Of a stretch of DNA of 64,000 bases, positions 30,301 through 33,300 are shown one piece after another. The position numbers are program-made. Each line of letters begins with the position of its first letter. Positions within the stretch are counted from its first letter, which is position 1. Source of the DNA: an uncultured Alphaproteobacteria bacterium (GTDB lineage: Bacteria > Pseudomonadota > Alphaproteobacteria > CAAHEQ01 > UBA3637); contig CALXUR010000004.1 in the NCBI GenBank assembly GCA_944391735.1, positions 17,556-81,555 on the forward strand, given 5' to 3'.

Positions 30301-33300
30301 ATCCGTTAAGTTCATACAGAAAGTAACGCGGTATCCTTTATATCTTAAATAACGATTTAATAAATCATAAAATACAAACGCACGCATATTGCCGATATGC
30401 GAATAATTGTAAATCGTCGGTCCGCACCCGTAAAACCGCACCTCGCCTTCACGGATGGGCCTAAAGATTTCTTTTTGGTGTGTCGCCGTGTTATAAACTG
30501 TGAACATAACTTTCTCCTTTTTCGTGTCAAACTATCATATTTTTGTTTGCTTTGCAATCCCAATTCGTTTGAAAAACTTATCCACCGGCTTCCGCCTATT
30601 TTATATATAAAAAATATAATAGAAGTAGTTGATGCTGCGCATAACGGGGATAACTTTTTTATTTTTTTCTTGACATCATTTTTGATTTTTCCCGACTCGG
30701 TGTTTTTTATGTTTTTTTTCTGATAAACAGGTCTTTTTTTGCGAATCGATTTTAGCGTTTTTTCCTGTGCATATTTTTTGAATAACTTTGAATAACTTTT
30801 TCTTGACATCCTTTTTTGAACAACTTATCCCCATTATTCACACTTATCCACAATCTCCTTGCATTTATCCGATATTTTGGTTATACTTGTTTATAACAAA
30901 AGGATGTTTCATGAGAGAAATTGTGTTGGATACCGAAACAACGGGTCTGGATCCGTTTCAAGGGGATAAAATTGTCGAAATCGGGTGCGTCGAATTGATA
31001 AACCATATGCCGACCGGCCGCACTTATCAAAGATATCTGAATCCGGATAAGGTTATGTCCGAAGAGGTGATTGCCGTTCACGGGTTGACAAATGATTTTT
31101 TGGCCGATAAACCTCGTTTTCATGAAATAGCGGACGAATTTCTTGCGTTTGTCGGAAATGATGCGAAATTAGTTATTCATAACGCCGCGTTTGATATGAA
31201 GTTTTTGAATGCCGAATTGGAAAAATGCGGCCGCCCCTTGTTGTCCTATGATCGTGTCGTGGATACATTGATTATCGCGCGTCAGAAATTTCCGGGCAGC
31301 CGTGTGAATTTAAATGAACTGTGTAAACGGTTTAATGTGGATGATTCCGCTCGAACAGTTCACGGCGCATTGTTGGATAGCGAATTGCTGGCCGATGTGT
31401 ATTTGGAATTAATCGGCGGACGTGAACCCGGCTTGGTTTTGGATGCTGCTCAAAAGCAAGTCTCAACCGTTACCGTGCCGTCAAACATACCTCAAAAACC
31501 GCGTCAAAGGCCGTTTCGGGAGCCGCGCTCTTTCCCCGTTCCGCCTGATGAGTTGGCCGCCCATGTCGCTTTTATGCGGAAGATTTCCGATAATTTGTGG
31601 GGAATTACGAAAGAAAAGGAAGGATAGGAGGCTTATTCAATGAAACCGTTTTATGTTATGCCCGTGCTTGTGGTATTTCTTTCCATTTCCGCTACCGCTC
31701 AAATGTTGGATACCTTGTCCGGTTTGGCGGTTCAAGGGGCTTTGGCAAATCAATCGGCCTCTTCTGTTGCACAAGGCTTGTCCCGCTTGAAACAAACACA
31801 GATTTTACAGGATTTAAACCGGGTCGCGCTGGAGATTAAAATAAGCTATATGAACGGTTATACCGGTGTCAATGCCGCCTCGGTTTCCGGTCGCCCTTTT
31901 GAAGGGGTATCCTGGTCCGTCGGCCCCGAAGCACCCGATCGGTTTTATATTCAGTTGGCTGATTTAGATCAATCCTCTTGCCGCTATTTCGTGTCAAACA
32001 TGACGTCGGCTCGGGAAATTCAAGTCAACGGTTCTGTTGTTCCGACGGGATCTTGCGGTTCTCTAAACACCGTTCGTTTTGTTTTTGATTAAATTAAATT
32101 TTATTTATAGTTAATCAATGCAGAGCGCATGATAGATGGCACCGCTGGTATTGCGATAGTATTTTTCAATTCCGCCATCTCTTGTTATTAAAAAGGAATA
32201 ACAGGAACTATAATCAGAATCTGTCCAAATGTTATTTGTATTATGGGTATAATTCTCAAAAATAGTTTTCATACTCTCTGATTTTTCCGCATCTCGCCCG
32301 ACCCAGTTAATCCCATTTTGATTTTTATTACAAAATCCGACTTCTGTTTCGCCTATTTCAGGGTTAAAGCATTGTAAAGCGTTGCCACGAACACTGATTA
32401 ATCATTTTCCGTGAGATAAACAATAATTTTTAGCTCCCCACCATTTTAAAACCATAGGACTGAAATATGTGTTTCCGACATGGGGAACAAAAATAGGAGT
32501 TGGTAACGCTTGCTTGTCTTGACATGTGCCGACGTCCTCTCCAAATTCACATATATTTGCTTGAATGTTGCAAAATTGATTGGTGTTAATGTGGCCTTCT
32601 TCATTTTTTCCTTGACTCCATCTCTTCACCCATGTATACATTTTTATAACTTTTTATTGACCCTTTTTTCTTTATAAAAGATGCCTTAAAAGGCATATTT
32701 TATTGATTGACTCTATCGATTAATTATTTGAAAAATTAGCTTATTTTTATCAAATTTATAATTTTTGATAATAAGATGTTTATATAATATGTGTTTTTTT
32801 TATGATGTCACTCTTTTATTTTTCTTTATTCGGAACATTTCTTTTCAAAAAAAACTTGCAATTAGATTTTAAACAAGATAAATTGTTTCACATGAAACAT
32901 TCATTGTCCTACAGGTGTGTGTTTCACGTGAAACAGAGAGGAAAAATGGAAAAACAAATTATCGCATCTATTGAGAAAGCCGAAACTGATCTCAAACATT
33001 ATTTAGATTTATTGAATAACTGGCAAAAAGCGGTTAATTTAATTTCTTCCTCAACCTTGGAAACGGCATGGCATCGGCATATTGTGGATTCTGCACAATT
33101 ATATCCACTTATTCCTAATACAGCTTTTTCTTTGGTGGATATGGGATCGGGTGCCGGATTTCCGGGATTGGTTCTGGCTATTTTAAATAAAGCGAATAAC
33201 GGCTTTTTGAAAGATATTTTTTTAGTTGAAAGTGATCTGAAAAAATGCTTGTTTTTAAAAGAGGTCAGCCGACAATTATCTGTTCCCGTTACCGTGTTAA

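Follow-up and report, generated by a model that had tools for sequence, protein, structure and literature searches.

The cysS-dnaQ spacer and its DnaA boxes

Analysis of a 64-kb stretch of DNA (here called the window; positions 17556 to 81555 of contig C4) from an uncultured gut alphaproteobacterium with a reduced genome revealed a candidate chromosomal replication origin (oriC) in the intergenic spacer between cysS and dnaQ. The underlying assembly comprises 1.0 Mb in 20 contigs with a completeness of ~75%, and the closest publicly available relatives are bins from metagenomes, one of them from sheep rectum. The candidate occupies the whole spacer of 403 bp (30508 to 30910), which is richer in A and T than the genome (69.5% versus 56.2% AT). 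As pointed out in an initial annotation of the window, which had already proposed an origin at this place, the spacer separates divergently transcribed genes, with cysS on the minus strand to the left and dnaQ and rsmG-parA-parB to the right, and lies ~2 kb from two parS sites (Table 1). This parS pair, located to the right of the spacer ahead of rsmG-parAB, represents the sole matches (up to two mismatches) in the assembly.

DnaA boxes were counted against the consensus TTATCCACA, with dinucleotide-preserving shuffles of the 403 bp (n = 5000) as the null model. Four sites carry at most one mismatch, i.e., a perfect TTATCCACA at 30844 and one-mismatch boxes at 30578, 30825, and 30834, and another six (at 30636, 30645, 30766, 30777, 30787, and 30888) have two mismatches. 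The shuffles yielded 0.12 boxes at the stricter threshold, compared to 4 observed, and 1.6 ± 1.2 at the looser one, compared to 10 observed; none of the 5000 reached either observed count. Within the assembly, a density of four boxes with up to one mismatch per ~400 bp is unique to this spacer, which is thus the top cluster by count. The initial annotation had listed five boxes, one of them the perfect box at 30844. The perfect box and the clustering were confirmed, and the number of boxes was, if anything, an underestimate. A duplication of ttcttgacatc, also mentioned there, is present with copies at 30667-30677 and 30800-30810. Furthermore, a module consisting of a weak reverse box (GATAAC/AATAAC), a T-tract, and CTTGACATC occurs twice (30645-30677 and 30787-30810) both here and in the related genome G007, and its second copy is not conserved in the remaining relatives.

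Table 1. Features of the cysS-dnaQ spacer and its surroundings (positions within the window; DUE, DNA unwinding element)
Feature	Position	Strand	Remarks
cysS (cysteinyl-tRNA synthetase)	29110..30507	-	Left boundary; Pfam tRNA-synt_1e, E = 7.6e-115; neighbours the spacer in 14 family genomes
Candidate oriC	30508..30910		403-bp spacer; box excess, skew minimum, architecture conserved in 14 genomes
cysS promoter-like site	30534..30563	-	TTGGGA, 18 nt, TATGAT; consensus scan, pattern match only
Left DnaA box	30578..30586	+	TTATCCACC; 1 mismatch; core TTAT.CAC kept in 13/14 genomes
AT-rich DUE candidate	30597..30621		Least stable 25-mer by nearest-neighbour energy
DnaA-trio-like repeats	30617..30628	+	TAA TAG AAG TAG, followed by 7-nt spacer TTGATGC (30629-30635)
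Tandem reverse DnaA boxes	30636..30653	-	TGCGCATAA (30636), CGGGGATAA (30645); 2 mismatches each
T-tract + TTGACA	30654..30675	+	CTTTTTTATTTTTTTCTTGACA; near-invariant in 14/14 genomes, without indels relative to the boxes
CGA[A/C]TCG	30693..30699		Contains GANTC; 17-19 nt after TTGACA; 13/14 genomes
Second GANTC (GAATC)	30743..30747		Kept in some relatives only
Weak reverse boxes	30766..30795	-	TGTGCATAT, TTTGAATAA, TTTGAATAA; 2 mismatches each; TGTG.AT block conserved
Right DnaA boxes	30825..30852	+	TTATCCCCA, TTATTCACA, TTATCCACA; starts 30825, 30834, 30844; head-to-tail
dnaQ promoter-like site	30859..30887	+	TTGCAT, 17 nt, TATACT; inferred, read from sequence
dnaQ (DNA polymerase III epsilon)	30911..31627	+	Right boundary; Pfam RNase_T, E = 9.1e-36
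rsmG-parA-parB	32802..35268	+	Pfam GidB, AAA_31/CbiA, ParB_N/HTH_ParB/ParB_C
parS (two sites)	32884..32935		TGTTTCACATGAAACA at 32884 (one mismatch), TGTTTCACGTGAAACA at 32920 (perfect)

Strand asymmetry and conservation among relatives

The cumulative GC skew of contig C4 (200-bp bins) falls from the contig start to ~30845, inside the spacer, and rises from there on, so that the skew test suggested in the initial annotation speaks for an origin at this position. C4 is the sole long contig of the assembly with a clear internal V-shaped minimum. Since transcription diverges at this locus as well, we split the coding-strand skew at third codon positions (GC3 skew) into four classes by side of the locus and gene strand. 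Values of +0.36 (left, minus strand) and +0.28 (right, plus strand) were obtained for genes pointing away from the spacer, and of -0.04 (left, plus strand) and -0.11 (right, minus strand) for the others. A purely transcriptional bias predicts equal values in all four classes, whereas the observed classes differ, which indicates that the asymmetry follows the replication strand. The same flip was found in all five relatives analyzed (pooled values of +0.23 and +0.18 versus -0.04 and -0.02), i.e., in six of six genomes including this one. The skew switch is thus replicational and not a by-product of divergent transcription.

For these relatives, which were chosen for their long contigs, ±40 kb around the locus was fetched. 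In all five, the minimum of the cumulative skew lies at the locus upstream of dnaQ, in four of them in the exact 1-kb bin and in the fifth within 3 kb. Left of the spacer, a segment of the window with low GC content (31-35%; 10000-18000) shows a locally reversed skew that interrupts the overall fall.

A search for DnaQ in 40 related genomes, with loci taken including 1.5-kb flanks and minus-strand loci reverse-complemented, yielded 14 genomes with a cysS-flanked spacer, comprising the one studied here, eight of the same genus, and five of other genera of the family. G008, whose contig ends inside dnaQ, is outside this set. In the alignment of the 14 spacers, the conserved blocks coincide with the boxes, and their mutual spacing is kept. 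The first of the right-hand boxes is retained in every genome in a TTATCC[C/A]CA-like form and the last as ..CACA, and the middle one (30834) is found in part of the family only. At the columns of the tandem reverse boxes, G004 and G003 carry a perfect TGTGGATAA and others TGTGCATAA, and the spacing from these boxes to the next block is invariant across the aligned spacers. An AT-rich block at the position of the DUE candidate is present in 14 of 14 genomes. The alignment also revealed conservation of the TATGAT and GCAA blocks of the cysS promoter-like site and of CTTGC and TATA[C/A]T in the site preceding dnaQ.

Family members with a different left neighbour still have box clusters beside dnaQ. 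In G019 (L021 686-1400, G019:C14), at least 10 DnaA boxes, seven of them perfect, are found within ~300 bp, and a small gene of ~100 codons is located between the boxes and dnaQ. In eight alphaproteobacteria of other families, on the other hand, the 700 bp preceding dnaQ are devoid of boxes, with the exception of a single one-mismatch site in G036. A different arrangement on the left side was observed in G002 (L010, G002:C8), where cysS has the opposite orientation to that in the other 13 genomes and a terminator-like hairpin at its end faces the origin, with spacer and dnaQ unchanged.

The box cluster, the skew minimum, the skew of the relatives, and the conservation of the spacer all support the candidate put forward in the initial annotation. 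On these sequence features, the cysS-dnaQ spacer is very probably the oriC of this bacterium.

Predicted unwinding module and a conserved internal element

The AT-rich tract noted in the initial annotation is real: the segment 30597-30621 has the lowest 25-mer stability in the window and ranks joint second across the assembly. It is separated by 14 bp from the tandem reverse boxes, and most of the 14 genomes have TAG-type triplets in register with those overlapping its right end. Published search rules for basal unwinding systems specify a box with up to two mismatches, a second box with up to four, a spacer of up to 16 bp, and at least three NAN triplets (PMC8287927), and the segment 30597-30653 agrees with every one of these rules. 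The order of its parts (AT-rich tract, triplets, spacer, and box pair) matches the known layout of DnaA unwinding modules, and we predict that it represents such a module.

The basal unwinding system of the Bacillus subtilis oriC and its predicted counterparts consist of a DnaA-box pair, a spacer, DnaA-trios, and an AT-rich region (PMC8287927, PMC6669920). The segment identified here resembles them in having an AT-rich tract, (T/A)A(G/A) triplets, a short G/C-containing spacer, and two tandem TGTGGATAA-like boxes in the same order and orientation. In a Clostridioides difficile example, the same strand has the sequence ...TAGTAGTAGGTG (PMC7561715), comparable to the ...TAGTAGGTGC found directly before the box in relatives of our genome. 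The segment differs from these systems in that both boxes are weak and that the predicted module is part of an alphaproteobacterial origin located away from dnaA.

Based on this layout, DnaA would occupy the higher-affinity boxes at the left (30578) and right (30825-30852) ends of the spacer, with these outer boxes acting as a scaffold, and would also bind the tandem reverse boxes at 30636-30653 as a platform. From the tandem pair, DnaA-ATP would oligomerise leftward onto the TAG-type triplets at 30617-30628. The AT-rich element at 30597-30621 would then melt, the helicase would be loaded there, and forks would depart bidirectionally. The three right-hand boxes, which are located directly upstream of the dnaQ promoter-like site, may also tune dnaQ transcription.

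The spacer furthermore contains another conserved element, composed of a T-tract with TTGACA (CTTTTTTATTTTTTTCTTGACA) and the downstream CGA[A/C]TCG. TTGACA is replaced by TTGACG in G018 and by TTGACT in G010, and G010 is also the exception to CGA[A/C]TCG, with TGAATCG at this place. The bases between the two parts are unconserved across the 14 genomes, which belong to several genera. Such a pattern is the signature expected of an element in two parts within the origin, either a protein-binding site or a promoter, and in the latter case CTTTTTTATTTTTTTCTTGACA might represent the -35/UP region. A plain sigma-70 promoter was rejected, since the corresponding -10 hexamer, CGA[A/C]TC, is poor and the promoter scan was silent on the site.

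The reverse complement of CGA[A/C]TCG fits YGAKTCK, the motif preferred by GcrA (PMC4647560), and a fit to YGAKTCK is found at this offset in 14 of 14 genomes. A gcrA gene is present in every family genome searched, including this assembly, and the element may be a GcrA- or methylation-sensitive promoter. An orthologue of CcrM size was found neither in this assembly nor in the complete genomes G001 and G009 of the same genus, and methylation of the conserved GANTC by CcrM is therefore unsupported. In contrast to the universal gcrA, an N6-adenine methyltransferase of CcrM size (360-380 amino acids, 225-240 bits to PF01555) has a patchy distribution within the genus and the family. As the element is retained in members in which no such methyltransferase was detected, it might alternatively be read by another factor.

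CtrA sites of the form TTAA-N7-TTAA were found in none of the 14 spacers; the looser pattern TTWW-N7-TTWW is uninformative at 70% AT. Strict IHF sites (WATCAANNNNTTR) were likewise absent from all 14, and a looser IHF pattern (WATCANNNNNWTR) matches four of them at non-homologous positions. It is conceivable, if rather unlikely, that origin control has moved from CtrA sites to the invariant T-tract/TTGACA/CGA[A/C]TCG element, with GcrA plus adenine methylation, or transcription, gating firing. Apart from this one unexplained conserved element, the predicted origin is of the ordinary DnaA type and will not surprise specialists. It would be a compact 403-bp origin in which the module of box, trio, and AT-rich tract is clearly recognizable and CtrA sites are missing.

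Alternative sites, gene neighbourhood, and known origins

Several observations weigh against placing the origin in the cysS-dnaQ spacer. The predicted unwinding module has two degenerate boxes here, both with two mismatches, and the (.A.) rule for trios is permissive where DNA is AT-rich. Of three control genomes, G034 lacks a clear minimum of the skew at the site linked to hemE, so that skew is not invariably decisive in Alphaproteobacteria. Moreover, the incomplete, fragmented assembly leaves room for a second or better candidate in unassembled DNA, and a site on contig C2 (99471-99504) with three perfect boxes in 34 bp outscores the spacer when perfect boxes are weighted.

The cluster might instead be a DnaA-regulated promoter region of dnaQ, and perhaps of cysS, with the origin located at another place, such as the quarter of the genome missing from the assembly. 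In favour of this, 6 bp separate the end of the three strongest boxes (30825-30852) from the -35 of the conserved dnaQ promoter-like site, and the assembly is 75% complete. However, the replication-linked asymmetry flips right at this spacer in all six genomes, and in G019 the boxes remain at the skew minimum even though a gene intervenes before dnaQ. Boxes are essentially missing upstream of dnaQ in the eight genomes of other families, an unwinding element with trios and a box pair would be superfluous for a promoter, and the only parS sites of the assembly are 2 kb away. We consider this explanation very improbable. DnaA control of dnaQ, the alternative named in the initial annotation, thus survives as a possible added role of the right-hand boxes and fails, on account of the skew switch and G019, as a substitute for an origin.

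Even less probable is an origin at the C2 site, with the cysS-dnaQ cluster as a secondary DnaA-binding locus. The C2 boxes are perfect copies of TGTGGATAA spaced by 12-13 bp in an AT-rich spacer of ~900 bp, and they reach the top score when perfect boxes are weighted double. The contig nevertheless has no skew minimum there, its cumulative skew forming a slight local maximum or plateau at about 100 kb, and no parS is nearby. In addition, the cluster is missing downstream of the same adk-like gene in G007, the closest relative having this gene, and most members of the genus lack the gene itself. A strain-specific role in DnaA titration or regulation is conceivable for the C2 site. Its spacer (L002 5472-5505 for the boxes) follows the adk-like gene, and a TGATCCACG-like sequence is located 60 bp beyond the boxes. 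Finally, the contig stems from a metagenome assembly, and skew switch and boxes might coincide by accident at an assembly joint or a recent rearrangement devoid of origin function. We regard this as highly unlikely, since the junction of cysS, spacer, and dnaQ was independently assembled in 14 genomes with conserved internal spacing and the skew V spans tens of kilobases on either side in the relatives.

An origin adjacent to dnaA was also discarded. The gene is located on contig C1 (172741-174147) and encodes a protein with DnaA_N, Bac_DnaA, and Bac_DnaA_C domains. Its next gene is hsp20 and not dnaN, and a DnaA-box cluster was not seen when the AT-rich region of ~400 bp upstream of it was read. 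The skew of C1 falls steadily from 33 kb to the contig end, with no switch near dnaA at 173 kb. A shallow skew minimum near 15 kb of contig C10 was rejected as well, as it is accompanied by scattered single boxes only.

With the cysS-dnaQ spacer as the favoured origin, its gene neighbourhood can be compared to that of other Alphaproteobacteria. The published origins of Caulobacter and Rickettsia are located between hemE and COG1806 (PMC1914354). In other families, hemE is found 1-5 kb from dnaQ. The complete 2.0-Mb genome G038 contains hemE on the minus strand, a 345-bp spacer with boxes, and COG1806 (Kinase-PPPase)-maf-aroE-coaE-dnaQ on the plus strand, all confirmed by Pfam, with the skew minimum at most 1 kb from the hemE/COG1806 spacer. 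In G029 (1.4 Mb), only a 986-bp spacer, which contains seven boxes, separates dnaQ from hemE, with the two genes facing each other; the skew minimum is located no more than 2 kb away. PF03618 (COG1806, DUF299, Kinase-PPPase) is present in nine genomes of other families and lies between hemE and dnaQ wherever those two share a contig.

In the family studied here, COG1806 is absent from all 25 genomes. Likewise, hemE (PF01208) is absent from this assembly, also by tblastn, and from all 25 family genomes except for a 90-residue fragment in G018. A maf homologue is located on another contig, and neither aroE nor coaE was detected in the assembly, which is 75% complete. With hemE and COG1806 lost from the family, the origin now abuts dnaQ. 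Judged by gene order, the conserved origin cluster ends with dnaQ, which is its remnant at this locus, and cysS holds the place of hemE. The present origin would accordingly descend from an arrangement of hemE, origin, and COG1806(DUF299)-maf-aroE-coaE-dnaQ. The initial annotation was right that neither dnaA nor hemE is adjacent, but its description of a non-textbook context does not hold; the setting is rather the standard alphaproteobacterial one after gene loss.

The Caulobacter crescentus origin (Cori) and that of Rickettsia prowazekii are described as intergenic between hemE and COG1806-DUF299 (Brassinga et al., cited after PMC1914354). The candidate resembles both in combining a box cluster and an AT-rich tract in a spacer of ~400 bp at a strand switch, apart from dnaA, near parS-parAB, and beside a gene string ending in dnaQ. 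It differs from them in its flanking genes, cysS and dnaQ, as hemE and COG1806 are gone family-wide, and from Cori also in the absence of strict CtrA and IHF sites from all 14 spacers. Predicted origins of Wolbachia, Ehrlichia, and Anaplasma are located between hemE and COG1253 in spacers of 385-620 bp (PMC1914354). These share with our candidate a reduced genome, the replacement of one canonical boundary gene, a similar spacer size, and few DnaA boxes. They have kept hemE as well as CtrA and IHF sites, whereas here only the dnaQ side persists and neither type of site is found.

In Escherichia coli, oriC is located apart from dnaA, and its DUE lies beside box R1. Shared features are a DUE located 5' of a box in TGTGGATAA orientation, boxes at the two ends that point in opposite directions, and a remote dnaA. 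GATC/SeqA sites are not present in the spacer, and length, box number, and neighbouring genes differ from those of E. coli.

An origin at this spacer would define how the replichores are arranged throughout a family of uncultured Alphaproteobacteria from the gut, with genomes of 1-2 Mb, in which the usual markers dnaA-dnaN, hemE, and COG1806 fail. It could be used for genome finishing, for growth rates derived from metagenome coverage (peak-to-trough ratios), and in origin databases. The locus also illustrates how an origin neighbourhood may erode under genome reduction, with the linkage to dnaQ and parS persisting and hemE and COG1806 lost. With regard to other features of the surroundings, an Rfam scan of the locus matched no RNA family, and no tRNA genes are located within 10 kb. 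The true start of rsmG probably lies downstream of the parS sites.

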